A stretch of 64,000 bases of DNA from Anaerolineae bacterium. GTDB taxonomy: Bacteria; Chloroflexota; Anaerolineae; CG2-30-64-16. Position numbers and translations under genes: made by a program. Positions 14,046 to 31,910 of the stretch are shown piece after piece. Location: NCBI GenBank assembly GCA_038214535.1, contig JBBQRS010000009.1:4176-68175 (forward strand). The letters are read 5' to 3'. Below the pieces are notes generated by a model. That model ran no database searches. It was not told the origin of the DNA and worked only from the letters and a program-made list of their open reading frames with translations. The number at the start of each line of letters is the position of its first letter. The first letter of the stretch is position 1.

Positions 14046-15662
14046 ATGGAGTTCGCGTCTATGCGACACACTTCCCGCTTTCTGTGGATCGGGCTGGCCT
14101 TCTTGCTCTCGGCATGTATGCAAGTCCCGACCCGAACCGATACGCCGTCTGCACTTCCCACCCTCACCGCCCCCACCGCTACATCCGAAGCCGAACCGAT
14201 CGTCGCGCCGGAAGTGACGCCCGTACCCACGGTCGCGCCCACTGCCGAACCCGCACTGGTGACTCAGCCTCTTTTTGCGCCCCTGAGCGACGCGCAAATT
14301 CTGATGGAGACGCTGCGCCCCGAAGCCGAGATGACGCCCGAAGGTACGGCCGACATGACGCGCTATGACATGACTGTGCAGTTGGCCGACGACCTGAGCG
14401 CCGTCACCGGCGAGGCGACCATCCGCTACACCAATCGCGAGGCGGTCCCGCTTGATGCGCTCTATCTGCATCTTTTCCCCAATCTGTGGGACGGTGGGCT
14501 GACGGCGGCTAATGTGAAGGTGGACGGCGCGCCTGTCGAAATTGCGTGGCCGTCGGGCGACGACATCCTCGGCGGCGTGCTGCCCGCGCCGCTGATGCCG
14601 GGCGAAACCGTGGAGCTTGCGCTGGAGTTCGCCATGGATGTGCCGTCGGGCGACGGCGTGGGCAATTATGGTGAGTTCGCCTATCAGGACGGTATTCTGG
14701 CGTTGGCGCACTTCTACCCGACGATGGTGGTCTATGATACGGATTGGCGGCTCGAGACGCCGTCGTCGCAGGGTGACGTGATCTTCAACGACGCCAGCCT
14801 GTATGACGTGACCTTCATCGCGCCCACCGGCATGAAGGTGGCGGCGACCGGCGCGACCGTGGAGAGCCGCGATCTGCCCGATGGCCGCACGGCCTGGCAT
14901 CTGGTGGGCGGCCCGATGCGCGATTTTAATATTGTCGCAAGCAAGTCCTACGCGTCTGAAGCCCAGCAGGTCGGCGGGGTCGAAGTGACCAGTTATTTCC
15001 TGCCGGAGGATAAGACGGGCGGCGAACTGGCGCTGAAATATGCCGCCGATGCGCTGCGCGTCTACGGGGACGCGTTCGGGCCGTATCCGTATCGCGAGCT
15101 GGATGTGGGCGCCACGGCGACCGAGGCCGGCGGGATCGAGTACCCCGGGCTGGTCGTCGTCGCGCGCGCGCTGTATCAGGCTGCCGACCCCACGGGCTTC
15201 TTTCAGGCCGCGACGGCGCATGAAGTGGCGCATCAGTGGTGGTACAACGTGGTCGGCAACGACCAGATCAACGACCCCTGGCTGGATGAGGCGACCGCGC
15301 AATACGCGACGGAGCTATATTACGGCCATGTCTACGGGCCGGGCGGCGCGGCAGCGTTCGAGAAATCGCTGGATGACCGCTGGGCGCGCGTGGATCACGC
15401 CGACAAGCCCATCGGCCTGCCCGTCGAGGACTATGTGGACCGTGAGTATGGGGCCATCGTCTACGGGCGAGGGCCGCTGTTTCTCAATGCCCTGCGTGAC
15501 CGCATCGGTGGGGAGAAGATGACGGAGTTCTTGCGGCGCTACTACGAGGAAAATCGCTGGGGCATCGCCACGCCCGCGCGCTTCGAGGCGTTGGCCGAAG
15601 AAGTCTCCGGTCAGGACCTCAGCGACCTGTTCGCGGAATGGGTTTACGGACTGCCCCAATAA
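14046..15662 (+). CDS. Secreted M1-family metallopeptidase (aminopeptidase N-like).
   Basis: N-terminal signal peptide/lipobox (LLSAC). 'HEVAHQWWYNVVGND' HEXXH motif followed by 'LDEATAQY'. Confidence 0.85.
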   Translation: MEFASMRHTSRFLWIGLAFLLSACMQVPTRTDTPSALPTLTAPTATSEAEPIVAPEVTPVPTVAPTAEPALVTQPLFAPLSDAQILMETLRPEAEMTPEGTADMTRYDMTVQLADDLSAVTGEATIRYTNREAVPLDALYLHLFPNLWDGGLTAANVKVDGAPVEIAWPSGDDILGGVLPAPLMPGETVELALEFAMDVPSGDGVGNYGEFAYQDGILALAHFYPTMVVYDTDWRLETPSSQGDVIFNDASLYDVTFIAPTGMKVAATGATVESRDLPDGRTAWHLVGGPMRDFNIVASKSYASEAQQVGGVEVTSYFLPEDKTGGELALKYAADALRVYGDAFGPYPYRELDVGATATEAGGIEYPGLVVVARALYQAADPTGFFQAATAHEVAHQWWYNVVGNDQINDPWLDEATAQYATELYYGHVYGPGGAAAFEKSLDDRWARVDHADKPIGLPVEDYVDREYGAIVYGRGPLFLNALRDRIGGEKMTEFLRRYYEENRWGIATPARFEALAEEVSGQDLSDLFAEWVYGLPQ

Positions 15663-17809: not shown

Positions 17810-17956
17810 GAATCATCACCTCTCTCTGGGTCTGACCTATCGCCGCATTTGATCGGTTTGCGCCGTGTGATGCTATAATGCCGTGTGCTCCGCTTCGACC
17901 GGCCGCTGCGACGTTGCGAGCGATGGGTACAATCTACCTGCCGGAAAGGACAGGGT

Positions 17957-19069
17957 ATGCGCGCCGAAGACCATTCGCCTCCGGCCCCCAAACAGCCGCC
18001 CCGTGCCAAACGCGGGCTATGGCTGCTTGCAGCGCTCCTCTTACTACTTCAGATGCCGGGATGCGCCGCGCCACGGCGCGCGATGCCCACGCAACCATCA
18101 TCGCAGATCACAGATACGGCCACCGCAACGGCCGCTGCACCGCGTGAAACCATAGCGCCCACGGTAACGGCAAGCCCCACCCTTGCGAAGACCGCCACCG
18201 CCACAGCGACCGCGGCAACTCCCGCAGACAAAATTATCATCCCCGAAACTTTGCGGGCGAAGATCGAGATTGTCTGGCCGCATGACGGCGCCACGGTGCG
18301 AGAAGCGACGCAGGCCAACCTCACCGCGTATCTCATGGGTGTTGACTCCTACAAGTCCCCACCGTGCGCCTGGGAGCCCACGGTGCGCCTGTGGATGGCG
18401 CTGAACGCCGAACCGGCTCGCCCCATCGCCGTGGCGGAGAAGCGCATGTTGGACACCGGCGGGCGGGATTTCCCCGTCTGGGATTTCAACGATATTGACG
18501 TCAGCGCCGCGCGCGACCCCTTCAACAAGCTCACATTTTACGTCACTGTGGATGATGTGGATACTTACCATAACATATGGGTCCACGCGCAGGACGCCCG
18601 CACCCTTCAAGCGCAACCCAACCAGCCAACCGAGTTGCTGTCACAACCGCCGCAGGAAGTGGACGCACGCATCAAGATCGTCTGGCCGCATGATGGCTTG
18701 TCGGTCGAACAGGCGGAACTGGCGAACATCACGGCGTCGCTGTTCAAAGCAGGCACGCTTTCGGCGATTTCAGGCGGAGCATCATGGAATCCCGCCGTTC
18801 GGCTCCATCGCTCGCTCAATGCGGACGCCGAATCGCCATCCGATCCGCCGATCACGGGTCAACGTCGCGCCATCCCAACCGAAACCGGCGCTGAGATGTG
18901 GGCCTGGGATTTCAACGATGTTGACGTGCGCGCCGCCCAGGACCGGTTGAACAAGCTCTACTTCTGGGTCAGCGTTGACGGCGTCGCGACGTTCCCAAAT
19001 ATCTGGACGCACGGCGCGGATACCCCCACCGTATTCCCGCAGGTAGACGTGCTGGAATCTTGCCGGTAG
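17957..19069 (+). CDS. Secreted protein made of two tandem copies (~130 aa each) of an unrecognised domain.
   Basis: Signal peptide (LWLLAALLLLLQMPGCAAP). Repeat 1 reads 'KIEIVWPHDG...WDFNDIDVSAARDPFNKLTFYVTVDDVDTYHNIWVH' and repeat 2 'KIVWPHDG...WDFNDVDVRAAQDRLNKLYFWVSVDGVATFPNIWTH'. Divergent from the two-component system. Confidence 0.7.
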   Translation: MRAEDHSPPAPKQPPRAKRGLWLLAALLLLLQMPGCAAPRRAMPTQPSSQITDTATATAAAPRETIAPTVTASPTLAKTATATATAATPADKIIIPETLRAKIEIVWPHDGATVREATQANLTAYLMGVDSYKSPPCAWEPTVRLWMALNAEPARPIAVAEKRMLDTGGRDFPVWDFNDIDVSAARDPFNKLTFYVTVDDVDTYHNIWVHAQDARTLQAQPNQPTELLSQPPQEVDARIKIVWPHDGLSVEQAELANITASLFKAGTLSAISGGASWNPAVRLHRSLNADAESPSDPPITGQRRAIPTETGAEMWAWDFNDVDVRAAQDRLNKLYFWVSVDGVATFPNIWTHGADTPTVFPQVDVLESCR

Positions 19070-19087: not shown

Positions 19088-21286
19088 CTATCTCCGCAAT
19101 TCCAGTGTGGGGTCACCCAATAAGTTAAAAGTCAGCAACACCTCGCGTACCCCCGCGGTCTGATCGGTAACGCTCGTCTGCGCCTGCAACACCGCGTCGC
19201 CCAGCCGGGCTGCGTTGTCCTGGCCGCCCGGCCTGATTGCCAGCGCGTCTGCCAGGGCCTGCGAAAGGGGTCTTTGATCCGCCAGCAACGCTGCGCCGGA
19301 GGGCACCAGCGCCGCGACTGCGCCGCCACCCGCGTGTCGCACCAGCGCCTCACCCAGCGATACGGTCGAGGGGTGTACGAAGAACCCGCTCAGGCACGTG
19401 ACCGTGAAAACGACGGGCAGGCGATCTCCATTCTTCAACGCCGGTACATCCTCGACTTTCAGGATGCCTTCCTGCGCCCAGAGCGTCACGCTGCCGTGGC
19501 CGGTGTAACCCATCAGCCCGACCCCGGCGTCGAACGCGCCCAACACAGCCGTGCGCGCCGCGCTTCCATCGCCCGTCACCGGCGCGACCTCGGCCTGAAA
19601 CCCCGTCAGCCTCGCCCCGAACGCCTGCGCCTCGACCAGGAAGTCGGGATCATCGTTATCGGCGGGCAAAATTGCCTGGCGTCGCCATCCGGCTGCTGCG
19701 TTGCCCTGCTCATAAGCGAGGGTCTTGGCGACCATCGCACGCACCTGTTCGGACGTCTGCGCCGGGAGCCGGCCCACCGCCATGACTGGTTTCAACGATG
19801 GGGCGGCGTCGCCTGCCTTCAAGGTGATGCCATCTCCCTCAAAAACGGTGGGCGGCAACGCGTACCATACGTCTGATGCGGTCCAACCCGTGTAGGTTGT
19901 GGCGATGAACTGGGCAGGGATGATATCCTTCTCGGCCCCAGCGAGATAGCCGGATGGATCGTAGGAGGCGTCGCCGACCAGAAGGAGATAGGCAGGGGCG
20001 GGCGCAGACCAATTTGCCCGCGCATATTGCACGAGGTCGCGGATTGCCGACGGGTCGGGCCGGCTGCGGCTGAACGCGTCATATACCGCCGCCGCATCCA
20101 GCACGGCCACGCGCAGACCAGCCTTCTCGCGCGCCGCGATGAGCGGCTGGAGCGCCTCGCGGAACTCGGGCGCAGTTACGACGATCACGTCTGCGCCGCC
20201 GGGCCACCCGGGCAGGCTGCCGGGTGCAACGCCCGCGATGGATGCGGGCTGGAGTAAGCCATCCTTGAGTGCAACCACGTAACGTCGCGCCGTCCCATCG
20301 GAGCCGAAGCGCAACGCGCCATCGGCAATCGCATATCCGGTCAGGGGTTGGGGCTGTGCGGGGTCGGTCACATCCCACACGGCGAGGTCATCGGGTTGCA
20401 ATCGCCCGGCGGTCAACGCGACGCGGAAGCCGGACGCCTGGCCACCAAATTCCAGCGGTGCAGCGCCGGCGACGAGCGGGCGCTGATAGGTCACTTCGGC
20501 CCAGTCCACCAGCACGGAATCGGCAGGCGCGCCCGTGTCGCCGGGCGCGGTGAGTTTGAGGCGATTTTCGCCGGGTTTCAGCAGGCCCGCGGGCAGCGGC
20601 AGCTCCACGAGGTGCGTGCCGCGGCCGTCCCACGTCGTTTCGCCCAGCGCGACGTCGTTCATCGTGAGGATGATCCGATGGTCGGGGTTGACCGGGGCCA
20701 TGGACTCGGCCCACAGGCGCAGCCGGAGCAGGCCTTCCGCGGGCAGCGGGTCAACTATTGCGAACGGGATTTCAAAATCGGCGGGCGCAAAGAGCGAGGT
20801 CCAGAACCAGCGGTCGCCGCCCGGCTCGGCATCGGGCAGGTAACGCTTTTGCTCCTCCGCGCGCACCGTGACCCAACCCGTATCGGTCAGATTGGCGTCC
20901 GCGGGCGGGGGGGCCGGTTGCGCTGCCGCTGACCCCTGACCGGCCGCCAGCCGGTACACATTGCGGTAAGATTGGCCCGGACGGCGATTCGCCCGGCCAT
21001 AGAAGCGCACGGCGGCTTGTTCGTCCTCTCCCACGCGTTCCAGGGCGACGGGGCGACCATCCACGCTCAGGGACAACCCGGCGGCATCTGTTACGGCCAA
21101 CCCTGTGTTGCGTAGGGCGTCGAGCGAGAGGGAATACAGGCCATCTTCTCCGATCACCAGTTTGACGGCGGCGATGGTCTGCGGCGCGGGCGGGGTCTGC
21201 GGGGTCTTCGACGTGCAGGCGGCGACCGCAAGCAAGAGCAGGAGCGGCAAAATCCACTTCCGCCGCAGGGCGCGTGGGGGCGTCAT
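19088..21286 (-). CDS. C25-family (gingipain-like) cysteine peptidase, paralog 1, secreted or lipoprotein.
   Basis: 'LMGYTGHGSVTLWAQ' (catalytic His region) and 'LPVVFTVTCLSGFF' (catalytic Cys region). Signal peptide LLLLLAVAACTS. Start trimmed to MTPPRALRRKW to avoid overlapping the upstream gene. Confidence 0.75.
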   Translation of the reverse strand: MTPPRALRRKWILPLLLLLAVAACTSKTPQTPPAPQTIAAVKLVIGEDGLYSLSLDALRNTGLAVTDAAGLSLSVDGRPVALERVGEDEQAAVRFYGRANRRPGQSYRNVYRLAAGQGSAAAQPAPPPADANLTDTGWVTVRAEEQKRYLPDAEPGGDRWFWTSLFAPADFEIPFAIVDPLPAEGLLRLRLWAESMAPVNPDHRIILTMNDVALGETTWDGRGTHLVELPLPAGLLKPGENRLKLTAPGDTGAPADSVLVDWAEVTYQRPLVAGAAPLEFGGQASGFRVALTAGRLQPDDLAVWDVTDPAQPQPLTGYAIADGALRFGSDGTARRYVVALKDGLLQPASIAGVAPGSLPGWPGGADVIVVTAPEFREALQPLIAAREKAGLRVAVLDAAAVYDAFSRSRPDPSAIRDLVQYARANWSAPAPAYLLLVGDASYDPSGYLAGAEKDIIPAQFIATTYTGWTASDVWYALPPTVFEGDGITLKAGDAAPSLKPVMAVGRLPAQTSEQVRAMVAKTLAYEQGNAAAGWRRQAILPADNDDPDFLVEAQAFGARLTGFQAEVAPVTGDGSAARTAVLGAFDAGVGLMGYTGHGSVTLWAQEGILKVEDVPALKNGDRLPVVFTVTCLSGFFVHPSTVSLGEALVRHAGGGAVAALVPSGAALLADQRPLSQALADALAIRPGGQDNAARLGDAVLQAQTSVTDQTAGVREVLLTFNLLGDPTLELRR

Positions 21287-21296
21287 GGCAGGTATC

Positions 21297-22283
21297 TCAG
21301 GGACGGCGCATGCGAAGCGCGGTCGCCGCGACCACACCGAGCGTTACGCCGACGGCCAGTGTCAGGGCGATCACCACCCCGATGGGCAGCCCCCCTTTGC
21401 TGCTTGCGTTCGTGTTCGCTATCGGGACCTGCGCATCGGTGGGCGTGTCCGCGGAAGCTTCGCTTCGCGCGGCAAATACTACCGGCGCAGGGGTCAGGGT
21501 CGGTGTTACGGTTGGGCGCGGCGTGTGCGACGGAGTTGCGGTCGGCGTTTCCGTGGGTAAGGGGGTGGGCGAAGGCGTCGGGATGGGCTGCGTTGCGGTC
21601 GCGGGCAATGGGATCGCTGCGAGGACCGGTTCGCCGGTCGGCCTGGTGACGACCCCCGGGCCGGGCTTCGGCGCCGGGACCGCGGGCACAACCGGCTGCT
21701 GAGGTTGCACCGGTGGAATGAGCGTCGCGGGCATCGGCGTCGGTGGTATGGGGGTGTTCGTATAGCGTCGCGTGGCGGTTGGCGGGTCGGTGCTGGTGGC
21801 TGTACCGGCAACATAGACCCAGCGGGTTGAAGTGGCGTTCGTCGTGCCGCCGGGATTCACGGGGCCATGCCACGACGAACCGCCCGCAGAGGTCAGCTCT
21901 TCCAGCCGGTAGTAGTAATTACGCCCTGCGATCAGCTCCGACGCGGGGTCTGTGTAGCTGTAGGTCGCGCCGGTGACGCTGTTGCCCTGCGCCTGTTGCG
22001 TGGCGACTACTTGCCCCACCATGTTCGGGCTTTCAGACCGATAGACGCGAAACGCCACCGTATCAATTTCGGTCGCGGTCTCCCACTCCACGAGGATGGA
22101 GCCGTCGCCCTGGCGTGTGGCCTTGAAGCTTTTGAGGGTGACCGACGCATCCACGCGATGCAGGGTTACCCCCGAGAGAAGCACCGTCACGGCCAGCAAC
22201 ATCACTGCCCAGACCCACATGACCGCGCGTCGCCCATTGTGAAAGTGTTTACGAGAATCCATATCCATCATCTTGCCTGCCAA
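21297..22283 (-). CDS. Membrane-anchored Fn3-like domain protein with a Pro/Thr-rich stalk and a C-terminal TM helix plus basic tail (P1).
   Basis: N-terminal TM/signal. Fn3-like 'ILVEWETATEIDTVAFRVYRSESP...YYYRLEELTSAGGSSWHGPV'. About 130-aa P/T-rich linker. C-terminus 'GLPIGVVIALTLAVGVTLGVVAATALRMRRP'. Start codon uncertain (TTG, or downstream ATGs). Confidence 0.65.
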   Translation of the reverse strand: MAGKMMDMDSRKHFHNGRRAVMWVWAVMLLAVTVLLSGVTLHRVDASVTLKSFKATRQGDGSILVEWETATEIDTVAFRVYRSESPNMVGQVVATQQAQGNSVTGATYSYTDPASELIAGRNYYYRLEELTSAGGSSWHGPVNPGGTTNATSTRWVYVAGTATSTDPPTATRRYTNTPIPPTPMPATLIPPVQPQQPVVPAVPAPKPGPGVVTRPTGEPVLAAIPLPATATQPIPTPSPTPLPTETPTATPSHTPRPTVTPTLTPAPVVFAARSEASADTPTDAQVPIANTNASSKGGLPIGVVIALTLAVGVTLGVVAATALRMRRP

Positions 22284-22335
22284 CCGCGCCGCTCCACATC
22301 ATCCTCAATACAATAAGAACCTGGCCGAAAACTCC

Positions 22336-22358
22336 GTAGTTTAGCCCCTCATGGGCGT
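22336..22358. repeat. Twenty-three-nt conserved intergenic motif, copy A (GTAGTTTAGCCCCTCATGGGCGT on the plus strand).
   Basis: Reverse complement ACGCCCATGAGGGGCTAAACTAC matches 36557-36578 (ACGCCCACGAGGGGCTAAACTAC) at 22 of 23 positions. Confidence 0.6.
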
Positions 22359-22406
22359 TGGCGACGGGTACAAGGCCCTAAGCTACGATTCGGATAGACA
22401 CAAACT

Positions 22407-24716
22407 TCAACGCAACACGTGCGGCAGATACGTCCATTCTTTGCCTGACGGCAATCGCATTGCCGGATCGCCATACAACGTCATGGTTGCCAGTACATAG
22501 TTATCCCCGTACTGGCGATAGAATTGCTCTTTCGCCAACTGAAGCGCCATGCCCAGCTCTGGCACATCGTTCCGGAACAGCTCGGTCATCACCAGCTTTC
22601 GGAGGTTCTGCTGATCGGGGGCCAGCCCCCGGCCGGTCGCCGAGATCGCCGCAATGGAACCCCCACCCTGTCGCAACAGCATGGTCTCCGCCATGCTGGG
22701 CGTCCCGGGATAGGCGAAGTACCCATCCAGACAGTTGAGCGTCATCACCACCGGCAGAGCACCGCCGTTTTGTAACCCTGCAACGTCTATTGTACGCCAG
22801 ATTTGCTCATGCGCCCAACTCGTGATCTCACCATGCCCGGTATAGTGGAGCATGAACGCCCCGCTCTGGATCGCGTTGGCGATGGCCTGACGCGCGGCGT
22901 CGGCGTTTGGGATGGCCGGGGTGTTCAGGTAAATCCGCTCGGCATACTGGTCGCGCGGGAGATCATCACGAATGATCTCATCGGATAGCGCCTGAAAGTT
23001 GCCGGCGTAATCGGGACCGTTGCTGTCGGTGTTGTCGGCCACAAATATCGAACGGCGCTGCCAGCGCGCCAGTCGCAGCGAATCGTCATAGGCAATGATC
23101 TTGCCGACCACCGTGTTGGCTTCGGCCAGCGTGTTTGCCGGGATGCGCCCGACGGCATATTCGGAGCGTCCGTCGCCGTTGGTGTCGCCGTACAGCGCAT
23201 CGGCGGGCGCCTCGCCCTGCCACGGGTCCACGAAAGCGAGATAAGGCGGCACGAGATTCGGCGCGGGCGGATACTTCGCCGGGTTGTACCCCTTGAAATT
23301 CCAGTGCCCATCTCCGAGCAACGTCAAGTACCTGGGCGACGCGCCTTCCCAGTGCGTTTGGGCCCAGGCCAGCATGGCCGGCACGGCGCGCGGGTGATAA
23401 ATCCCGTCATTGAATTCGTCCACCACATCGCGGAACAGCGCCACGATGGGACGACGGCCATGACTGATATGCCAGTTTGCCAGGGTTTGCGCCGCGGGCA
23501 ACAGACTTTCGTCGGTCACGATCACCACATCCGCGCCGCCGGCCGGCGCGCGTAGCGTCGTTGGGGGCCGCAGCCGCACCGACGCGGGCGCGTTCAGCGT
23601 CTCGACCGTTTGCAGCCAGGAGCGCGAGCTTGCGCCATCCTCGACGCGGAAGCGCGCCTGGAGGCCGCCCGCGCCGGGCTGGAACGCCGCGCCCGTCAAC
23701 CGGCGCGGCGATGCCGGCGTCGAGATGTCCCAGACCTCAACCTGATCGTTCGGCCAGCCCGAAGTCAGATATTCGTGCGTCCCCGGTGACTCGGCAGTGA
23801 AGCTCAGGCGGCCCGCATTGGCCCGGAAAAGCCGCCGATAATCCAGCTCTAGATAGTTGACATAAACATCATCCACGACCAGATTCGCCGGGACGAGCGC
23901 GCTCACCGCCGCCGTGTTCGCGCCTGCGGCCAGCAGCCCGCCCGGTACGTTGGTCTGGAAGACCCTACGCACTTTGCCGTCCCAGCTTTCATCGAGCAGC
24001 GGCGCGCCGTTAAGAGTGATCGTCGTGCGATGATCGGGGGCGTAGTTGTTGTTATAGCCGCGCGCAACCACTTCCACGCGCAGGGTCGCCGCGGCGCTGG
24101 GCGCAGGGTCGGGGACAAAGAGGCTCAGGTTGGCGGTCGCCGGGGCCGTGACGGCGGTCAGTCGCGCCCAGAACCATGTATCTTGCGTATCCAGCTTGAG
24201 CGTGTCCAGCGACCACCACTCCAGCGATTCTTCGGCGTGCAGGGTGTCGGGGAAATCGGCCGGCGGGGTGAGGTTGCCCTGCGGCGCGGCGGCAATGTCA
24301 AGGACGCGCGGCCCAGGCGCGCCGCCCATGTCCAGCCAGTAAACGCGTTCATCGGTATATTTTTGCTGCATCTCCGGGCCGCGAAAACGTTGGCCGTAGA
24401 AGATCAGCCGGTCATCGGGATCGAAGCGGCCATCGGCCTCGCCCGTGACGCGCACGGCCACCGGTTGCCCCATGCTGCTCAGCGCGAACGTCAGCGGGTT
24501 GACGGAAGCTGGGTCAATGCCTGCGGCGGCCAAGTCTTGCGGGCGTAGGACGGTGAGGCCGTCCGTGGTCACGCCGATGCGGAGGCGTGTGGTTCCATCC
24601 GGTTGGGCGAGGTTTGGTTGGGCATGGCCGGTTGGGGCAGGAAGGAGGGCGGCGAGGACGGCGACAAGAACGAACGCGCGGATCAGGCGCAATGTAAATT
24701 GGCGGGTTTGATTCAT
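22407..24716 (-). CDS. C25-family (gingipain-like) cysteine peptidase, paralog 2, secreted.
   Basis: 'MLHYTGHGEITSWAHEQ' and 'LPVVMTLNCLDGYF'. Signal peptide. Overall collinear with paralog 1. Confidence 0.75.
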   Translation of the reverse strand: MNQTRQFTLRLIRAFVLVAVLAALLPAPTGHAQPNLAQPDGTTRLRIGVTTDGLTVLRPQDLAAAGIDPASVNPLTFALSSMGQPVAVRVTGEADGRFDPDDRLIFYGQRFRGPEMQQKYTDERVYWLDMGGAPGPRVLDIAAAPQGNLTPPADFPDTLHAEESLEWWSLDTLKLDTQDTWFWARLTAVTAPATANLSLFVPDPAPSAAATLRVEVVARGYNNNYAPDHRTTITLNGAPLLDESWDGKVRRVFQTNVPGGLLAAGANTAAVSALVPANLVVDDVYVNYLELDYRRLFRANAGRLSFTAESPGTHEYLTSGWPNDQVEVWDISTPASPRRLTGAAFQPGAGGLQARFRVEDGASSRSWLQTVETLNAPASVRLRPPTTLRAPAGGADVVIVTDESLLPAAQTLANWHISHGRRPIVALFRDVVDEFNDGIYHPRAVPAMLAWAQTHWEGASPRYLTLLGDGHWNFKGYNPAKYPPAPNLVPPYLAFVDPWQGEAPADALYGDTNGDGRSEYAVGRIPANTLAEANTVVGKIIAYDDSLRLARWQRRSIFVADNTDSNGPDYAGNFQALSDEIIRDDLPRDQYAERIYLNTPAIPNADAARQAIANAIQSGAFMLHYTGHGEITSWAHEQIWRTIDVAGLQNGGALPVVMTLNCLDGYFAYPGTPSMAETMLLRQGGGSIAAISATGRGLAPDQQNLRKLVMTELFRNDVPELGMALQLAKEQFYRQYGDNYVLATMTLYGDPAMRLPSGKEWTYLPHVLR

Positions 24717-25352: not shown

Positions 25353-25776
25353 TGGCGTTTGCGGCGCGCTGCTGACCCCCGCGCACCCATAGGAAGATCA
25401 CGAATCCGGCCAGCCCGCCCAGAATCAGCGCGTGCCGCCAATCGAACGCGGAAGTTCGGCTTGCCACCGGCCCGTGCAGGTTGACTGCCCCGGATTTCTC
25501 GATCTCCTGGAGCTGATAGTAATACGTCACGCCGGGCCGCGCGGTCGTATCCTCGAAGGTGTATTCCCCGCCGACCAGTGGATCGCTCGCCGGGGGGATG
25601 AGTTGCGGGTTGACCTTCACGTCGAACGGCCCATCCGGCGATTCGCCCCGATACAGGTTGAAGCCCGCCGTGTTGATCTCGCTCTCGGTGCTCCATTCCA
25701 CCCGCACCGATGAAGTGCAGCCGGCGAGCAGCAGGGCCAGGAGGAGCCACATGACAGGGCGCGGCGCGCGTGACAT
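25342..25776 (-). CDS. Lipoprotein with an Fn3-like domain and a C-terminal TM helix, paralog of P1 (P2).
   Basis: Start set at MSRAPRPVMWLLLALLLAGC (lipobox LAGC). 'VEWSTESEINTAGFNLYRGESP...YYYQLQEIEKSGAVNLHGPV'. C-terminal 'ALILGGLAGFVIFLWVRGG'. Confidence 0.6.
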   Translation of the reverse strand: MSRAPRPVMWLLLALLLAGCTSSVRVEWSTESEINTAGFNLYRGESPDGPFDVKVNPQLIPPASDPLVGGEYTFEDTTARPGVTYYYQLQEIEKSGAVNLHGPVASRTSAFDWRHALILGGLAGFVIFLWVRGGQQRAANANAS

Positions 25777-25787
25777 AGAGCGCAAGC

Positions 25788-27635
25788 CTATTCTACGCCC
25801 GTCGGGCATTCGAACAGGTGATCCGTGTCGAGCCAGCCCTGCCAGCGACAGCGGCCCGAGCTGAGATAGATGGGCCACGGCGGTACACCGGCCTGCTTCC
25901 GCACGGTCAGCGCGTAGGGCAAGGGTTGCACCGTGCGCGGCAGCCGGTAATCGAGCCGAACAACGTGGCTGTCGCCGGGGCGCAGCACGAAGACACCGGC
26001 GATCACCGTGGTGTCGGCTTCGCCGGTCTCGACCAGTACGCGCTCCAGCCCGTCCGTCGCCGTCACCTCGGCCCCCGGGGGCACGTACACGCGCAGATAA
26101 TCCCAGAAGCAGCGCCGCACCATTTCGTTATAGGAATCCCCATAGCGCGGCGTCCGGTCGCACGCCTGGTCGGGCGGCAGGGGCTGCGCTCCGTGGGTAT
26201 AGGTGATCAGCAGCGTCGCATTCAACAACCCTTCATTATTGCTCACCCGATAATCAATCATGTTTCGGATGGCCGCGCTGGTCTTGTTGAAGCTCAGGTT
26301 GCTGTCAACCACCGCCAGATAGTCCTGGCCGGGGACGGGGCGCATCGCGCCGTCCCAGCCCTGCTCGGCCAACAGCGTCGAGATCGTGGGATCGTCCACG
26401 AAGATCTGCAAATGACGCCCGTTCAGCATCGTAATCAAGGCTTTCGCCAACGCCGTTGGGTTCAAATCCGCGCCGCTTTGCAGCCGGGTCAGCGCCGTCG
26501 ATACCAGGTCGCCCATGAAGTCTTTGCGCTTGAACCACCAGTCTCCCGTGGCAGAGGAAGCCACCGTTTCGGTGCTGTCGGCGGGGCGTTCCCAGGCGCG
26601 TTTCATGTTATCCACGAGGTTGTCGGCGGTTACCGGCCCCTCGATGCCGGGTACATCCAGCGGCCCCAGCGCTTCCACCAACAGGCGCACGGCTTCCATA
26701 TCGAGCGCGATGACGCCATCGGTGTAGACGTCCTGGTCCTGGGCGTAAAGGGAACGCGCAACTTCGGCGCTGGTGGGGAAATCCGGCGACCAGTTGCTAT
26801 CGCGCAGCAGCAGCATTTGCGCGCCCATCCACTCGCTCAACGGCAGCGGCGGCGACGGATGCGGCTTCGACAGGTCGTCTGCCGCATAGCTGTCCGCCAT
26901 CTTGAGGTCGGTCAGCCGTCCGCCTTCGAAGCGCGCAACCCCCGCGCCGCTGATGAAGCCGCCGGTGGGGCGCATTTCATCGTTGTTCTGCGCCAGAATC
27001 AGGTAAGAGCGAGGTTCATCCACGCCCAGCAGCACAGGCGCAATCTGTGCGGCCTGCAATCCCACCCGCGCTAGGGGCAAGATGCGGTCTACCTGTGCCA
27101 TCTGGCCCTGGAAGCGCCCCGGCAGCGGTTGGGTGATGGATGCCCGGGCGGCCTCCGCGCGCGCGATGTGTTCTTCGGCGGCGGCCAACTCGGGTTGCGC
27201 GGCCTGCAACGCAGCGACCACTTGCCCCAACCCGTCGCCCGCGCCGTGCTCGCGCAGGCCCACGAGCGCAGGCCGCAATGCCGTCAGGGCTTGATTCCCG
27301 CCGGTTGCGGTTTCCACCGCCATATCCAGCAGCGCCGGGGCCGACCCTGCCAGCGGGCCGACTTTGGGCAACCAGCCAAATGCGGGGGCGAGAGGCATGA
27401 AGGGCCCGACGGCGCTGCGCACGGCTTTAAGGTGCGTCTCCAGGGCCGCCATCTCCGGGGCGACGGCGTCGAGCGCCGCCATGTCGGGGTTATCGGCCGC
27501 GGCCTGGATGCGATCCAATGCAGCCAGAGCCTTGCGCGTTTCTGTGGCCGCGCGGATCGCGCTGAACCCCACCCAGATCACCAGCAGCAGCAGGGCGACG
27601 CCGGCAACCATCAGGATGCGTCGTTTGTTGGTCAT
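25788..27635 (-). CDS. DUF4012 domain membrane-anchored protein.
   Basis: N-terminal TM helix followed by a ~580-aa extracytoplasmic domain containing 'ILAQNNDEMRPTGGFISGAGV', reminiscent of DUF4012. Four-nt overlap with the next gene. Confidence 0.55.
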   Translation of the reverse strand: MTNKRRILMVAGVALLLLVIWVGFSAIRAATETRKALAALDRIQAAADNPDMAALDAVAPEMAALETHLKAVRSAVGPFMPLAPAFGWLPKVGPLAGSAPALLDMAVETATGGNQALTALRPALVGLREHGAGDGLGQVVAALQAAQPELAAAEEHIARAEAARASITQPLPGRFQGQMAQVDRILPLARVGLQAAQIAPVLLGVDEPRSYLILAQNNDEMRPTGGFISGAGVARFEGGRLTDLKMADSYAADDLSKPHPSPPLPLSEWMGAQMLLLRDSNWSPDFPTSAEVARSLYAQDQDVYTDGVIALDMEAVRLLVEALGPLDVPGIEGPVTADNLVDNMKRAWERPADSTETVASSATGDWWFKRKDFMGDLVSTALTRLQSGADLNPTALAKALITMLNGRHLQIFVDDPTISTLLAEQGWDGAMRPVPGQDYLAVVDSNLSFNKTSAAIRNMIDYRVSNNEGLLNATLLITYTHGAQPLPPDQACDRTPRYGDSYNEMVRRCFWDYLRVYVPPGAEVTATDGLERVLVETGEADTTVIAGVFVLRPGDSHVVRLDYRLPRTVQPLPYALTVRKQAGVPPWPIYLSSGRCRWQGWLDTDHLFECPTGVE

Positions 27636-29188
27636 TGTGGTGTCATCTTTACGAGTGCTCCGACCGGCTCCTCAATCAGATCCGGCGCGTTGATGTCAAT
27701 CGGGCCGGCGCGATAGACCGGCAGGCGGTTCGCTACATCTGCGACGAAAGCGTCCACATCCGGCGCATCTAAGCCGACGGGCGGCAATACTCCGGGATGG
27801 TGGCTTGCCAGGGTGCGCCGATACCAGGGGAAAGCATACAGCCGGACGTTGACCGGCGTCAAGTCGGGGCGGCGCTGCAAGCCGTAGATGCCGTACCACA
27901 GCGCGAACGTGCGCGCATCTTCCTCAACGAGAATCACGGCGTCCGGCGCGGCCTCGGAGAGCGCGGCGTCGAGAAAGGCTTGCGCACGCATATCGCTGCG
28001 TGCGTCCATCGTCGCGCCGTGCCGCAATACAGAGGCGACCGGCAGGCTCAACAGGAACAGACCGAGCAGGATGCCCGACAGGGTGCGCCCCAACGGGATC
28101 GGCTGTTTACCGTCCGGCGTTCCCGCCGCGAGTTCGGCCAGCCAGTTCAGCCCTTCCGCCAGCCAGAAGGCAATCGCCGTCCACGCGGGGATGAGATACA
28201 GGTACGCGTCCGCCGTGTCGTAACCGATCGCGTAGATGCTGTAGGCGACCACGATGAGCAGGGTGAAACGCTGCCAGAGATGTTCGCGCCGGTCGAGCCG
28301 CCACAGGCCGAGCAACGCAATCAGCGCTCCCCACGGCCCCCCGCCGAACTGCCAGACGAGCTCGCTGCCCCAGGCCGCCACCCGACCGGGAAGCGCGCTC
28401 AGGCTGACGCCGAACATCAGCGGCCGGTAAATCTGCCCGGCGACCACTTGCCAGAACCGGAGTGGTGTGCTCGGGTCGCCCCAGTTCACCGGCGGGTCGG
28501 CGGCCGCGGCAAGGGGCAGATAGAGATAGACGGTCAACCCCAGCGCGGCTGCGGCCGCGGCGCTAAGCCATTCCCGTCTGTGGTCGGCTTGCTTCCGCCG
28601 GGTGTGCCACAGCCAATCGGCAGCCGCGGGGAGCATGAGGAGGGTCGTCAGGTGATTGCCCAGGCTCAGGCCAAATATCAGCCCTGTCGCCGCGGACGAC
28701 CCACGCCACGCGCCGCGCCCCCAGGACCACAGCAACGTCATCAGCGCGACGACCAGCAGGAAGTTCAGCCCGTGTACCTCGGTGATGACGGCCTGGCTCC
28801 ACAGCGCCGGCGATGCGGCCAGACAGAGTGCGGCAGAGAGCGCCACGGGGCCGCGCCAGACCGTCCCGGCCAACACTCGATAGGCGAGCGCCGCGAACAG
28901 ACTGACGCCCAGGGCCGCGCAACCGGCGGAGAGCCAGTTCCCCCAGCGCGCCGTCTCACCGGGCAACCAAGTGATCGCCCGCAATAATATCGCGTAGGTG
29001 GGATATCCGGAGGGATGCGGCACGCCCCTGACGAGCGCGGCTGCAAGGAAGTCGCCACCGTCGGAGCCATGATGCGCCCACGTCAGCCCGGGCGCGAGGG
29101 TTGCCGCATATAGAAGCAAAGCGACCGGCCCTGCAATCAGGGCCGGCCAAATGCCCCGAAGGGCGGAGCGAATCGAGTCGGCGGTCAT
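27632..29188 (-). CDS. DUF2723 (TMEM260-like, GT-C fold) putative protein O-mannosyl/glycosyltransferase.
   Basis: 'LAPGLTWAHHGSDGGDFLAAALVRGVPHPSGYPTY' N-terminal signature of DUF2723. Ten or more TM helices. Confidence 0.7.
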   Translation of the reverse strand: MTADSIRSALRGIWPALIAGPVALLLYAATLAPGLTWAHHGSDGGDFLAAALVRGVPHPSGYPTYAILLRAITWLPGETARWGNWLSAGCAALGVSLFAALAYRVLAGTVWRGPVALSAALCLAASPALWSQAVITEVHGLNFLLVVALMTLLWSWGRGAWRGSSAATGLIFGLSLGNHLTTLLMLPAAADWLWHTRRKQADHRREWLSAAAAAALGLTVYLYLPLAAAADPPVNWGDPSTPLRFWQVVAGQIYRPLMFGVSLSALPGRVAAWGSELVWQFGGGPWGALIALLGLWRLDRREHLWQRFTLLIVVAYSIYAIGYDTADAYLYLIPAWTAIAFWLAEGLNWLAELAAGTPDGKQPIPLGRTLSGILLGLFLLSLPVASVLRHGATMDARSDMRAQAFLDAALSEAAPDAVILVEEDARTFALWYGIYGLQRRPDLTPVNVRLYAFPWYRRTLASHHPGVLPPVGLDAPDVDAFVADVANRLPVYRAGPIDINAPDLIEEPVGALVKMTPQ

Positions 29189-29203
29189 ACTCTGAGGCAG
29201 ACC

Positions 29204-29890
29204 CTAACGGGGTCTGCCCGGATCGGCCCACGCGCCGCCCACCGGCGGCAGTTCCACCGGCGGCCAGATCAGGATCGCCTGCGCCACGGCCACGCTGCCG
29301 CCCGCCGCCGTTGCCTTTGCCACGTTCGTCAGTTCAGGCCCTGAGCCCGGAACCGGCCCTGCCAGTGCTGAGAAGCGAATCGTGTATTCGCCACCCGGCG
29401 GCAGCACGGCCACCTGCGCGCGGAGGGTGCGGCCATCCCATGCCGCGTCGCGACCTTCCAGCACCACGCCCGGCTCCAACCCCGGCGGCAGGGTATCTTC
29501 GAGCGAGATGCCCTGCAACGAGGTCGCGCCCTGGTTGCTGAGCGTCAGGGTGAAACCCACGGTCTCCCCCGGCCAAATCTGCCGGTGGTCGGCCCGTTTC
29601 TGAAGCACGAGTTGCGCGCCTTGCGCAGGCGCGATCGGGACGATGGGGGCGACGGTTGCGCCCGGCGCGACGGTCACACCCGGCGCGGGGGTTGCGCCCG
29701 GTGCCGGCGGCTGCCCGGGATCGGGCTTATCGGGGTCGGGCCGCTCCGGCGGCTCTGGAGGCTTGGGCGGTACAGTCTGGTTCGCCGGGCTTTGACCTGG
29801 TGTGGCCCATACGACCGGGCCGGACAGCGCCACGCCGACCAGCGCGACGGCCACCAACCCATAAATGATCCATTTCTTACTTCGTCCCAT
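29204..29890 (-). CDS. Membrane-anchored DUF11 (conserved repeat domain) surface protein with a Pro-rich stalk.
   Basis: N-terminal TM, 'PPKPPEPPERPDPDKPDPGQPP' linker, and 'GETVGFTLTLSNQGATSLQGISLEDTLPPGL' DUF11-type repeat. Confidence 0.6.
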   Translation of the reverse strand: MGRSKKWIIYGLVAVALVGVALSGPVVWATPGQSPANQTVPPKPPEPPERPDPDKPDPGQPPAPGATPAPGVTVAPGATVAPIVPIAPAQGAQLVLQKRADHRQIWPGETVGFTLTLSNQGATSLQGISLEDTLPPGLEPGVVLEGRDAAWDGRTLRAQVAVLPPGGEYTIRFSALAGPVPGSGPELTNVAKATAAGGSVAVAQAILIWPPVELPPVGGAWADPGRPR

Positions 29891-29945
29891 CGGATCCTCC
29901 CAGGCCGGAAAGGCATGACGTGCTCCGGCGGGTAGTTACACACCA

Positions 29946-30010
29946 CTTTGTAGTGACGGCTTCAGCCGTTGTCGTGCCCCCCCAAAACGGCTGAAGCCGT
30001 CACTACAAAG
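29946..30010. repeat. Nested palindromic intergenic repeat, copy 2, with perfect 24-bp arms.
   Basis: CTTTGTAGTGACGGCTTCAGCCGT, 16-nt spacer, ACGGCTGAAGCCGTCACTACAAAG. Lies between the stop of the flippase-like gene and the start of the DUF11 gene. In minus orientation the inner hairpin is followed by TTTTGGGGGGG. Confidence 0.75.
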
Positions 30011-30044
30011 GAGAGCGACGCACAGTTTTTGGATAGATTCTAAG

Positions 30045-31082
30045 TTATGGTTGCGTATCGAGCGTCCCCGGCAAGTCTGCCGTCGCCTCGCGGAGACGGC
30101 GGAGGTTCAGGCTGCGCGCCCACAGCGCAAGGGCTGCCCAGACGCCAATCGTTCCAAAAGCAATCGCATAGAGCACGACGCCGTAACTGAAGCTCGCCGC
30201 TTCGGGCACGCCGAAAACGGACAGCGCCGCCACACAGAGATACTGAAAAACGCCGATCTTGCCCGGCGTCGAAGGGATCGCCACGCCCCCCTGCAAGACG
30301 ACCAGCAGGAACACCGCGATCAGAAACGACGGCGGCAGCCCAAACGCCAACAACAGGAACCAGTTCGTGAGCGCCGACAGCAGCCAAGCGATCACCGTCC
30401 AGCCCCAGATCGCCGGCGCCGGTCTGCCCGCGCTGAGCACCGCTAATCCATCCATGAGCGACCGCAAACGGCCTTCCCAGCGCACCGCGAGGGTGGGAGA
30501 GAGCCGGTTCAACGCCCGCTGCATCAGCGCCAGCCACAATCGCCGGCCCGCCAGGAACACCGCAATCGCCAGCCCCACGGCGACGGCCATCACCAGCACC
30601 GGCGTCGTCCGCAGGGTGAACCGCTCGGGCAGCGCGACCAGCGGAACCAGCGCCGCGACCAGCACGGCCAGCATCACCAGATCGAGCAGCTTCTCGGCGG
30701 CAATCGTCCCAAAGACGTAGGATTTGTTAATGCCGGTTTCTTCGCCGCCCAGATATGTGCGGGCAAGCTCGCCGAAACGCCCCGGTACGATCAAATTGAC
30801 CGCCTGGCCGATCACCAGGGGGCCGCTCAACGCCAGGGTGCTCGCTTCAACCTGTTTCGGATAGAACAGCCAGCGCCAGCGCACGGTCTTTGCCAGCGGC
30901 GTCAACACGGTCGCCCCGACGGCCAGAAGCACGTAGAGCGGTTGAATCGTGCCGAGAACGGCCCATACCTGCCGCAAGTCAGTGTTGCGCGCCGCCAGCG
31001 CAAGCACCATCAGGCCCAGCGCCAGCCCAATCCAGGTGCGGATGCCGAACAGAGGACCCCGGCGCGCCCCCGCAGACGCCAT
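30045..31082 (-). CDS. Flippase-like UPF0104 / LPG_synthase_TM-domain membrane protein.
   Basis: Eight TM helices. 'WRWLFYPKQVEASTLALSGPLVIGQAVNLIVPGRFGELAR' is typical of PF03706. Confidence 0.65.
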   Translation of the reverse strand: MASAGARRGPLFGIRTWIGLALGLMVLALAARNTDLRQVWAVLGTIQPLYVLLAVGATVLTPLAKTVRWRWLFYPKQVEASTLALSGPLVIGQAVNLIVPGRFGELARTYLGGEETGINKSYVFGTIAAEKLLDLVMLAVLVAALVPLVALPERFTLRTTPVLVMAVAVGLAIAVFLAGRRLWLALMQRALNRLSPTLAVRWEGRLRSLMDGLAVLSAGRPAPAIWGWTVIAWLLSALTNWFLLLAFGLPPSFLIAVFLLVVLQGGVAIPSTPGKIGVFQYLCVAALSVFGVPEAASFSYGVVLYAIAFGTIGVWAALALWARSLNLRRLREATADLPGTLDTQP

Positions 31083-31097
31083 CAGGTTCAGTTGAAC

Positions 31098-31910
31098 CTA
31101 TTGCGCCGGAACCGGGCGGGCGATGACCACGAGACGATGTGTATTGTTCCACGGCGGCCAGCAGGTGATGATCGTCACCCGCTCGTCATCCGTCGGATTC
31201 ATGAAACGCGCGTTCGCCATCCGTTGTTCGGCGGACACACCCGTATCGCGCAGCCGATAGAACTCCTCGATCTGATAATCTACTTCCTGGCCGTCCGCGC
31301 CGAAAAGTTGCACAGTGCGACCATTCAAGACGTCGGAGCGATCCGTGAATTTGTCCACGGCGACCCGCGTGTCGTTGTTCCACGACTTGCTGATGGACTC
31401 GAACACCTTGCTGTAGATGTTGTTGTGGCCGGAGATCACTAGGTTGCCCTGCTCACCCAGCGACGCGCTGTTGATGTGATGGCCGGCCTCGATCTTCGGG
31501 ATCACCCATTCCGAAACCGGACCGTTGGCCGTATCCACCACGCGCCAACTCATCGGGATCACTGGCGTATCAATCTTCAGGTCGGGGATGACCAGCCGCA
31601 CGGGGGGCTGAAGAACCACCGGCGCGGACGTTGCGGTCGGCTCGACCGTCGGTTCTACCGGCTCAGCCGTGGCCGTAGGCGCTTCCGCGAGGGCGGCCTC
31701 TGTAGGCACGGGTGAAGGTTCGGGCGCGACCGTCGAGGTCGGGGGCGGCGTGCGCGAAGGCACGACGACCACTGCGGTGGGATCGCTGGCGGCTTGCGCG
31801 GCAGCCGCGTCGGGCGGCGTCCCGGTCTGGCAGCCGGCGATCAGCAGCGCGCTGACCAGCATCGCAGCCGCCCATTGAGTGATACGAAGATTGACGTGAG
31901 AACGCAACAT
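31098..31910 (-). CDS. Sortase-family transpeptidase (class E/F-like), membrane anchored.
   Basis: N-terminal TM plus Pro/Ala linker. 'GNLVISGHNN' (His), 'RVTIITCWP' (Cys) and downstream 'RLVVIARP' (Arg). Confidence 0.75.
   Translation of the reverse strand: MLRSHVNLRITQWAAAMLVSALLIAGCQTGTPPDAAAAQAASDPTAVVVVPSRTPPPTSTVAPEPSPVPTEAALAEAPTATAEPVEPTVEPTATSAPVVLQPPVRLVIPDLKIDTPVIPMSWRVVDTANGPVSEWVIPKIEAGHHINSASLGEQGNLVISGHNNIYSKVFESISKSWNNDTRVAVDKFTDRSDVLNGRTVQLFGADGQEVDYQIEEFYRLRDTGVSAEQRMANARFMNPTDDERVTIITCWPPWNNTHRLVVIARPVPAQ

Follow-up and report, generated by a model that had tools for sequence, protein, structure and literature searches.

A stretch of DNA of 64,000 nucleotides from an Anaerolineae bacterium (phylum Chloroflexota; positions 4,176 to 68,175 of contig JBBQRS010000009.1), referred to here as the window, contains two genes for C25 cysteine peptidases, C25#2 and C25#1, and between them a gene for a small membrane protein, P1. 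P1 bears a domain resembling fibronectin type III (Fn3) domains, and a second small protein with such a domain, P2, is encoded upstream of C25#2. Comparison with related loci identifies C25#2-P1-C25#1 as a conserved triad and assigns P2 to a different gene cassette. The account we favour, which we consider slightly better than an even bet (a probability of roughly 55%), joins four elements: a triad conserved in Anaerolineae, an ancient duplication of the peptidase gene, a separate cassette that includes P2, and processing of surface proteins by the two peptidases in the proximity of the membrane. An original prediction, made from the nucleotide sequence without database searches, had read the same region as a tandem duplication of a module composed of an Fn3-like membrane-anchored protein and a gingipain-like C25 peptidase.

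The C25#2-P1-C25#1 triad and its peptidases

A scan for relatives of the locus, with one genome per species, yielded 556 stretches, the best 80 of which were examined; almost all of these 80 come from the class Anaerolineae of the phylum Chloroflexota (Anaerolineales, Caldilineales, Ardenticatenaceae and Promineifilaceae). Open reading frames (ORFs) from all six frames of the related loci were labelled by comparison with the window proteins and a profile of the Fn3-like domain. The order of a C25#2-type gene, an Fn3 gene and a C25#1-type gene recurs in each of the four groups just named, and in 45 of the 60 loci with at least 1.5 kb of sequence upstream of the seed gene the C25#1-type gene is immediately preceded by an Fn3 ORF (44 recognized by an automatic criterion plus one, L016, by eye). 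The conserved unit is the triad C25#2-P1-C25#1, and the pairing of P1 with a C25 gene, for which the original prediction proposed a search in relatives, does recur there. In the window, the stop codon of P1 is separated by 10 nt from the start of C25#1, and 123 nt lie between C25#2 and P1.

The 15 loci without an Fn3 ORF at this position harbour a C25 gene whose product has an N-terminal transmembrane (TM) anchor, and the surroundings of the gene are different. This gene is often preceded by one for an S24/S26-like peptidase of about 170-200 residues (L042 9345-9857, L051 9271-9828, L069 9244-9840, L021 7931-8518), the match to PF00717 in L042 reaching 23.1 bits with a cut-off of 23.3. An uncleaved TM anchor is also present in the C25#1-type protein of Promineifilaceae and Ardenticatenaceae, with or without a preceding Fn3 gene.

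Both window peptidases are recognized by the Pfam model Peptidase_C25 (PF01364; gathering cut-off 23 bits), C25#1 with 247.6 bits at residues 368-730 and C25#2 with 253.4 bits (E-values in table 1). Profile positions 2-374 of 374 are covered in both, and both proteins end where the profile ends, with no domain after the catalytic one. Membership in the family follows from the profile, the catalytic dyad and the fold, the latter being that of an AlphaFold2 (AF2) model of C25#1 (pLDDT 87.9, pTM 0.86); C25#2 was judged by sequence. Foldseek matches this model to the gingipains RgpB and Kgp with E-values of 1e-16 to 5e-19 and target-length-normalized TM-scores of 0.59-0.67. In a phmmer alignment with gingipain R (1cvr), the YTGHG and C-L-x-G motifs coincide with those around His211 and Cys244 of RgpB ('YTGHG' and 'CVNG'), and the G-H-G and C positions (H597 and C631 in C25#1) are invariant in an alignment of 23 homologues that includes both paralogues. 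The C25 assignment, the YTGHG and C-L-x-G-[FY]-F motifs in both proteins, the intact dyad and the beta-rich N-terminal half (all-beta in the C25#1 model) had all been correctly perceived in the original prediction.

The two peptidases differ in their localization signals. A regular expression for the lipobox finds it, at the same position, in 32 of 46 C25#1 orthologues (which are about 50% identical across Anaerolineae) but in 0 of 34 C25#2 orthologues, which have ordinary type-I signal peptides instead; the 'AC' of the C25#1 lipobox is kept in the consensus of the homologue alignment. Judging from these signals and from the dyad, both peptidases are probably extracytoplasmic and active, one tethered (C25#1) and one soluble (C25#2).

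As anticipated, the peptidases are collinear paralogues, with residues 35-730 of C25#1 aligning to residues 39-755 of C25#2, i.e. over nearly the full length, at 31% identity (E = 3e-76). Their duplication is not a recent tandem event: blastn detected no DNA similarity between the two halves of the region (all E-values at least 0.38), and the paralogues fall into separate clades. A neighbour-joining (NJ) tree with midpoint rooting, computed from 112 C25 sequences of nearly full length, divides at the root into 43 and 69 sequences, with 34 of 34 genes located before the Fn3 gene on one side and 46 of 46 located after it on the other, the window genes being placed accordingly. The existence of two position-specific clades implies that the duplication predates the divergence of these orders and that the copies have kept their positions. 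On this sequence evidence, C25#1 and C25#2 are products of one ancient gene duplication. The tandem module duplication envisaged originally thus stands in so far as the peptidases are paralogous, but it fails both in recency, there being no DNA similarity, and in the duplicated unit, P1 and P2 not being sister copies, as detailed below.

P1, P2 and the cassette upstream of the triad

Over 84 residues, P1 and P2 are 36% identical (E = 8e-14), and their Smith-Waterman score of 139 is far beyond that of 2000 shuffles (26.5 +/- 5), which bears out the proposed homology of the two small proteins. The C-terminal TM helix was likewise well judged, as it occurs in both proteins, and the Fn3-like character of the shared domain appears apt: the AF2 model of P2 (built from a 43-sequence alignment; pLDDT 88.8) comprises a beta-sandwich (residues 24-107) followed by a helix (residues 113-143). 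The best PDB matches of this model in Foldseek are PelI, Ihog, fibronectin and neogenin Fn3 domains, with target-length-normalized TM-scores up to 0.64 and E-values of only 3e-3 to 4e-2, all above 0.001. Neither P1 nor P2 matches any Pfam family, including fn3 (PF00041), at E <= 0.01, P1 has no match in NCBIfam, and relatives of the domain show weak Ig_J_second and Kre9_KNH matches. No further copies of the domain were found in the window. A profile search of 1.84 billion cluster representatives retrieved it in 29,853 proteins at E <= 1e-3 and in 11,977 at E <= 1e-10, either in 1 to 20 copies per protein or once, together with a TM helix, at the C-terminal end of larger proteins. This delimits a family of about 30,000 cluster representatives for which Pfam has no model.

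Against a profile built from P2 orthologues only, the domains of P1-type proteins score a median of 51 bits and those of unrelated larger proteins 65-130 bits. Neither these scores nor the size of the family suggest that P1 and P2 originated along with the duplication of the peptidases; by sequence they both belong to a very large domain family and are not sister copies.

P1 carries a signal peptide with a V-D-A/S site, identified by eye in the translation. The P1-type proteins of about 45 related loci are all built alike: an Fn3-like domain placed towards the N-terminus is followed by a long linker of low complexity, a TM helix and an Arg/Lys tail. These orthologues were recovered from synteny; the family diverges so rapidly that a word-indexed homologue search with the N-terminal region of P1 returned only 3 matches. 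Their C-terminus displays a semi-conserved pattern, RN[ST]...LLGGGA...WRRR, whose GGGA is absent from the window P1. Two candidate identities of the P1 C-terminus were rejected. P1 is not a classical sortase substrate, as it has no LPxTG motif (an LPxTG-like motif sits on the DUF11 protein of the locus), nor is its C-terminus a known CTERM domain, as the window P1 gives no match and the best of four orthologues reaches 14 bits for GlyGly-CTERM with a cut-off of 15.5. Four loci (L004 1-627, L006 7941-8609, L007 4063-4584, L034 3-332) encode an additional small Fn3-like protein, its gene lying after the first C25 gene and before that of the P1 type. This protein is devoid of a TM helix, and only a few residues follow its shared Y-L-P-[LF] motif (…RRYLPLAPVKGR, …KTYLPLILR, …YIYLPLMMH, …DFYLPFITTN).

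Detectable homologues of P2 number 409; of the 120 among them that were listed, with lengths of 121-232 residues, not one has a Pfam domain. Of the 43 aligned sequences (four of the P1 type included), at least 90% retain the lipobox G-C, and the membrane segment 'LWLRGGR' is in their majority consensus; a lipidated Cys at one end of P2 and the TM helix at the other would hold it. Six proteins of 420-718 residues (P0326, P0374, P0376, P0382, P0390, P0391) terminate in a P2-like Fn3 domain plus TM helix scoring 117-130 bits with the P2-only profile, which means that the P2 module also serves as a C-terminal membrane anchor; the N-terminal parts of P0374, P0376, P0382 and P0390 have no Pfam match.

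In the window, these genes belong to a tightly packed minus-strand string, with spacing from an 11-nt overlap to 154 nt, transcribed in the order sortase, LPG_synthase_TM, DUF11, TMEM260-like, DUF4012, P2, Gamma_PGA_hydro, C25#2, P1, C25#1 (families assigned by Pfam matches; table 1). The order from the sortase to DUF4012 is also found in L002, L090, L096, L105, L124-L126, L129 and L136. P2 follows DUF4012 in L002 and L003, where ScmC and PqqD genes lie between P2 and the first C25 gene, and in L001, whose surroundings are devoid of C25 genes. Taking P2 as the seed, so that C25 could not bias the outcome, a scan found DUF4012 adjacent in 13 of the 25 loci with enough upstream sequence, a sortase adjoining P2 in a few more distant loci, and C25 in only 3 of the 9 loci with at least 6 kb downstream. 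Where both P2 and C25#2 are present, 0.6-4.4 kb of variable genes separate them. P2 is a lipid-anchored Fn3 protein of the upstream cassette and not a partner of C25#2, and the triad is usually located downstream of this separate, conserved envelope cassette. The claim that each C25 gene is preceded by one for a small Fn3-like protein consequently holds for P1 and C25#1, but not for P2 and C25#2, between which a poly-gamma-glutamate (PGA) hydrolase gene intervenes.

One might still imagine a duplicated two-gene unit (Fn3-TM plus C25) in which each small protein serves the next peptidase, P2 serving C25#2 and P1 serving C25#1. The window order P2 ... C25#2-P1-C25#1, the domain common to P1 and P2, the paralogy of the peptidases and the recurrence of the P2-type ... 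C25#2-type order in many loci all agree with it. It is made improbable, however, by the gene (in relatives, the variable content) between P2 and C25#2, by the ties of P2 to DUF4012 or sortase, with C25 absent downstream in 6 of the 9 P2-seeded loci that are informative, by the fact that P1 is not the nearest relative of P2 within a family of about 12,000 representatives, and by the different build of the two proteins, P2 having a lipobox and no stalk and P1 a signal peptide and a stalk of about 150 residues. The same ties of P2, the variable slot and the rarity of C25 near P2 speak against the two-gene unit of P2 and C25#2 in the original prediction.

As for the slot between P2 and C25#2, phmmer found no homologue of the PGA hydrolase in 160 related loci, and its gene, which is outside the conserved system, appears to have been inserted into a variable slot in this lineage. 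It overlaps the P2 stop codon region by 11 nt, and no signal peptide is visible in its translation. In relatives the slot holds a cassette resembling those for ribosomally synthesized and post-translationally modified peptides, with ScmC (PF27840) and PqqD (PF05402) genes (L002 10665-11572, L003 2704-3830, L029 3009-4181, L038 2296-4555); L038 additionally encodes a protein whose CxxxCxxC motif (CNERCTHCY) is radical-SAM-like, the slot of L026 (1458-2930) has an ORF of 490 residues, and small secreted proteins, one with a CBM96 match, are at times encoded beside the cassette.

Two further neighbours deserve a description. The DUF11 protein of the window ends in an LPxTG-like motif, ELPPVGG (29234-29254), which reads AELPPTGG or LELPVTGG in relatives and is found in orthologues from L002, L090, L096, L105, L116, L124-L126, L129 and L136; it is followed by 6-12 residues and no TM helix, an unusual sortase signal without a membrane-spanning part. 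The convergent gene downstream of the triad, X394, encodes a predicted lipoprotein with an MPGC lipobox, a PT-rich linker and two internal repeats of about 130 residues (K/RI-x-IVWPHDG ... WDFNDIDVSAA ... NIW-HA), with no match in Pfam or NCBIfam. In many loci of Anaerolineales a homologue is convergent to the C25#1-type gene; homologues so placed occur in L002, L004-L007, L010, L011, L013, L015-L017, L020, L023, L029, L047, L124 and L126, and those in relatives reach about 1,600 residues.

Table 1. Features of the triad, its upstream cassette and its neighbours (positions in the window).
Feature	Positions	Strand	Basis
Upstream conserved envelope cassette, whole	25788-31910	-	Pfam; order kept in relatives
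Sortase (cassette)	31098-31910	-	Pfam
LPG_synthase_TM protein, flippase-like (cassette)	30045-31082	-	Pfam
DUF11 protein (cassette)	29204-29890	-	Pfam
TMEM260-like GT-C glycosyltransferase (cassette)	27632-29188	-	Pfam
DUF4012 protein (cassette)	25788-27635	-	Pfam
P2, predicted lipoprotein, 144 residues	25342-25776	-	
P2 lipobox LAGC	25717-25728	-	
P2 Fn3-like domain	25456-25713	-	
P2 C-terminal TM helix	25375-25434	-	
Poly-gamma-glutamate hydrolase family gene, 207 residues	24729-25352	-	PF05908, E 3.2e-61
C25#2, PorU-like C25 peptidase, 769 residues	22407-24716	-	PF01364, E 5.2e-75
C25#2 classical signal peptide	about 24621-24716	-	
C25#2 catalytic domain	22452-23525	-	
C25#2 motif YTGHG	22830-22844	-	
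C25#2 motif CLDGYF	22716-22733	-	
P1, predicted stalked type-I membrane protein, 328 residues	21297-22283	-	
P1 signal peptide/anchor	22161-22229	-	
P1 Fn3-like domain	21855-22118	-	
P1 Pro/Thr-rich linker (P 24%, T 20%)	21396-21854	-	
P1 TM helix, followed by RMRRP tail	21315-21392	-	
C25#1, PorU-like C25 peptidase, predicted lipoprotein, downstream triad member, 732 residues	19088-21286	-	PF01364, E 3.1e-73
C25#1 lipobox V-A-A-C, residues 21-24	21215-21226	-	
C25#1 N-terminal beta-sandwich region, about residues 36-360	20207-21181	-	All-beta in AF2 model
C25#1 catalytic C25 (caspase-like) domain	19097-20185	-	Pfam; Foldseek
C25#1 His597 motif YTGHG	19493-19507	-	
C25#1 Cys631 motif CLSGFF	19379-19396	-	
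X394, convergent neighbour, predicted lipoprotein	17885-19069	+	

Possible function of the triad

C25 is a family of endopeptidases. C25#1 and C25#2 would be active outside the cytoplasmic membrane and close to it, and as endopeptidases they may process or trim cell-surface proteins. P1 could be an adaptor keeping C25#2, which is soluble, close to the tethered C25#1, a role most plausible with respect to C25#2, or else a dedicated substrate of both enzymes. Its Pro/Thr stalk is a plausible target of O-glycosylation by the co-encoded TMEM260-like enzyme, going by the family name of the latter only.

Several observations weigh against this account. The processing role derives from family membership and localization signals only. 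The NJ method behind the dating of the duplication is simple, with midpoint rooting and no outgroup. Scans for promoter and terminator consensus sequences in the window gave site counts equal to those in shuffled sequence, so the single-operon picture derives solely from the gene spacing. Aside from the two position-specific clades, there is a third, TM-anchored C25 lineage without an Fn3 neighbour. We also considered that P1 might be the anchor, i.e. that the anchor type of the peptidase is tied to the Fn3 partner, and rejected the idea, since TM-anchored C25#1-type proteins occur both with an Fn3 gene (L038, L039, L044, L053, L083) and without one; this absence of correlation weakens the adaptor idea for C25#1. 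Finally, one locus (L139; metagenome contig Ga0209253_10037871, 1-3748) has P2, a P1-type gene and a convergent X394 homologue beside it in the usual order, but C25 genes are absent. The locus has the appearance of a triad that has naturally lost them, and it indicates that P1 can function without the peptidases.

A more mundane interpretation sees C25#1 and C25#2 as ordinary secreted or surface nutritional proteases of proteolytic Anaerolineae, with a functionally unrelated Fn3 gene next to them. The endopeptidase character of the family is consistent with this, as are the other peptidases nearby, including one of family M1 (14046-15662), and the C25 lineage that exists without an Fn3 neighbour. 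Yet the triad order is kept across several orders despite a protein identity of about 35%, the spacing of P1 and C25#1 is tight, and the membrane tethering of C25#1 is conserved, and we regard the interpretation as unlikely. Were it correct, the locus would represent a routine family expansion.

Another conceivable role of P1 is that of a co-encoded inhibitor or latency partner, akin to the pairing of staphostatin with staphopain. P1 is indeed a small beta-sandwich protein encoded beside cysteine peptidases, and PorU, the closest characterized relative discussed below, is regulated by latency according to the title of PDB entry 6za2. A long stalk and a TM anchor would be unexpected in an inhibitor, however, and the Fn3-like domain is a generic module present in 1-20 copies per protein in thousands of proteins, so that such a role appears very improbable.

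Returning to the account of membrane-proximal processing, its novelty resides in the conserved triad and in a PorU-like architecture outside Bacteroidota; automatic annotation of such enzymes as 'C25 family cysteine peptidase' is already routine. Our literature search found no paper linking C25 peptidases with Chloroflexi or Anaerolineae or describing this gene arrangement, and the parts of the DUF4012 literature available to us, as well as the literature on PorU and Chloroflexi, look irrelevant to the locus. To our knowledge, characterized C25 peptidases are almost all from Bacteroidota, namely gingipains and PorU, the sortase of the secretion system of type IX (T9SS). The window thus presents a PorU-like whole-length architecture in another phylum, without the T9SS C-terminal domain and fixed beside a stalked Fn3 protein and a sortase/glycosyltransferase/DUF4012 cassette. 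If the enzymes process or attach surface proteins, this bears on how the poorly understood envelope of Anaerolineae is built and on the origin of the PorU-type sortase.

Comparison with PorU and other known systems

The best NCBIfam model for both peptidases is that of PorU (NF033707; cut-off 420 bits), with 214.3 bits for C25#1 and 248 bits for C25#2, residues 84-759 of the latter matching positions 63-736 of 1095; the PorU2 model (NF052324) gives 101.9 and 155.8 bits with a cut-off of 450. The best PDB sequence match of C25#2 is PorU (6za2, E = 4.5e-16), followed by RgpB (E = 4.7e-12). In Foldseek, the AF2 model of C25#1 matches PorU (6za2_B) with an E-value of 8e-29 over 811 columns including the N-terminal beta region, whereas the matches to RgpB and Kgp extend over about 386-408 columns only, i.e. 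the catalytic domain. The gingipain architecture (prodomain, catalytic, Ig-like and C-terminal domain) is not seen in either protein. Judged by sequence and model, both peptidases are PorU-like and not gingipain-like in their whole-length architecture, and the epithet 'gingipain-like' of the original prediction has to be replaced. Nevertheless, they do not qualify as PorU equivalogs: the order of N-terminal beta region and C25 domain matches, but the scores are below the curated cut-off and there is no C-terminal domain.

PorU keeps its own T9SS C-terminal signal domain and removes that domain from cargoes (PMC11285876); it combines removal of a C-terminal beta-sandwich domain with transpeptidase action (PMC11285876). 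A PorU-type sorting reaction independent of the T9SS may be imagined, in which tethered C25 enzymes cleave P1 and larger Fn3 + TM proteins at the stalk or at the C-terminal anchor, the products being either released or joined to an envelope polymer. The whole-length match to PorU, the activities of PorU just mentioned, the tripartite, sorting-signal-like C-terminus of P1 with the semi-conserved pattern of its orthologues, the Fn3 + TM unit ending larger proteins and the neighbouring genes of envelope biogenesis speak for it. Yet the scores of 214 and 248 bits are far under 420, the enzymes have no T9SS C-terminal domain, and the Fn3-like domain matched Fn3 rather than T9SS C-terminal domains in the PDB; the P1 C-termini stay under all curated CTERM cut-offs (the 14 bits coming from one orthologue), the window P1 has no GGGA pattern, L139 keeps P1 without any C25, and a classical sortase with an LPxTG-like substrate of its own is already encoded at the locus. 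We consider this reaction quite unlikely. The bolder proposal that the triad constitutes a T9SS-independent, PorU-type surface-protein sorting system of Anaerolineae, in which the Fn3 + stalk + TM module is recognized, cleaved near the membrane and released or transferred, is decidedly improbable; if true, PorU-like transpeptidation would be older and more widespread than the T9SS of Bacteroidota. No T9SS components are present among the genes annotated at 12.7-41 kb of the window, the genome at large not having been searched for them, and we know of no T9SS in Chloroflexota.

Among other known systems, C-terminal sorting signals (LPXTG/sortase, GlyGly-CTERM/rhombosortase) resemble P1 and its orthologues in the low-complexity linker, TM helix and Arg-rich tail, but P1 has no LPxTG, reaches no curated CTERM model and is missing the motif of its orthologues. 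Fn3 domains (PelI 3b8y, Ihog 2ic2, human fibronectin) are those on which the predicted beta-sandwich of P2 superposes best (probability 1.0), but the P1/P2 domain gives no Pfam fn3 match and has a signature of its own, W-x-T-x-x-E...GF-x-[LV]-YR...YYY-x-L-x-E...GP. The gingipains RgpB and Kgp (1cvr, 4ief, 4rbm) have in common with the window enzymes the catalytic fold and dyad, with YTGHG and C-[LV]-x-G aligned. A difference is seen at the S1 residue Asp163 of RgpB, which aligns with Gln in C25#2; this comes from one pairwise hidden Markov model alignment with residues counted by hand and carries low weight, and it weakly suggests that Arg specificity is not to be expected. The closest parallel is PorU, the T9SS C-terminal signal peptidase/sortase of Porphyromonas gingivalis. 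The homology spans the N-terminal beta domains and the C25 domain, the His/Cys dyad and an 'ADN' motif are common to both, and action at the cell surface, predicted for the window enzymes, would be a further likeness. The window enzymes depart from PorU in scoring about half of the family cut-off and in having no counterpart of about 360 C-terminal model positions, including the C-terminal domain that PorU retains, because they stop with the catalytic domain. The manner of anchoring differs as well, PorU being held through PorV and the Anaerolineae enzymes relying on a lipobox or a signal peptide.

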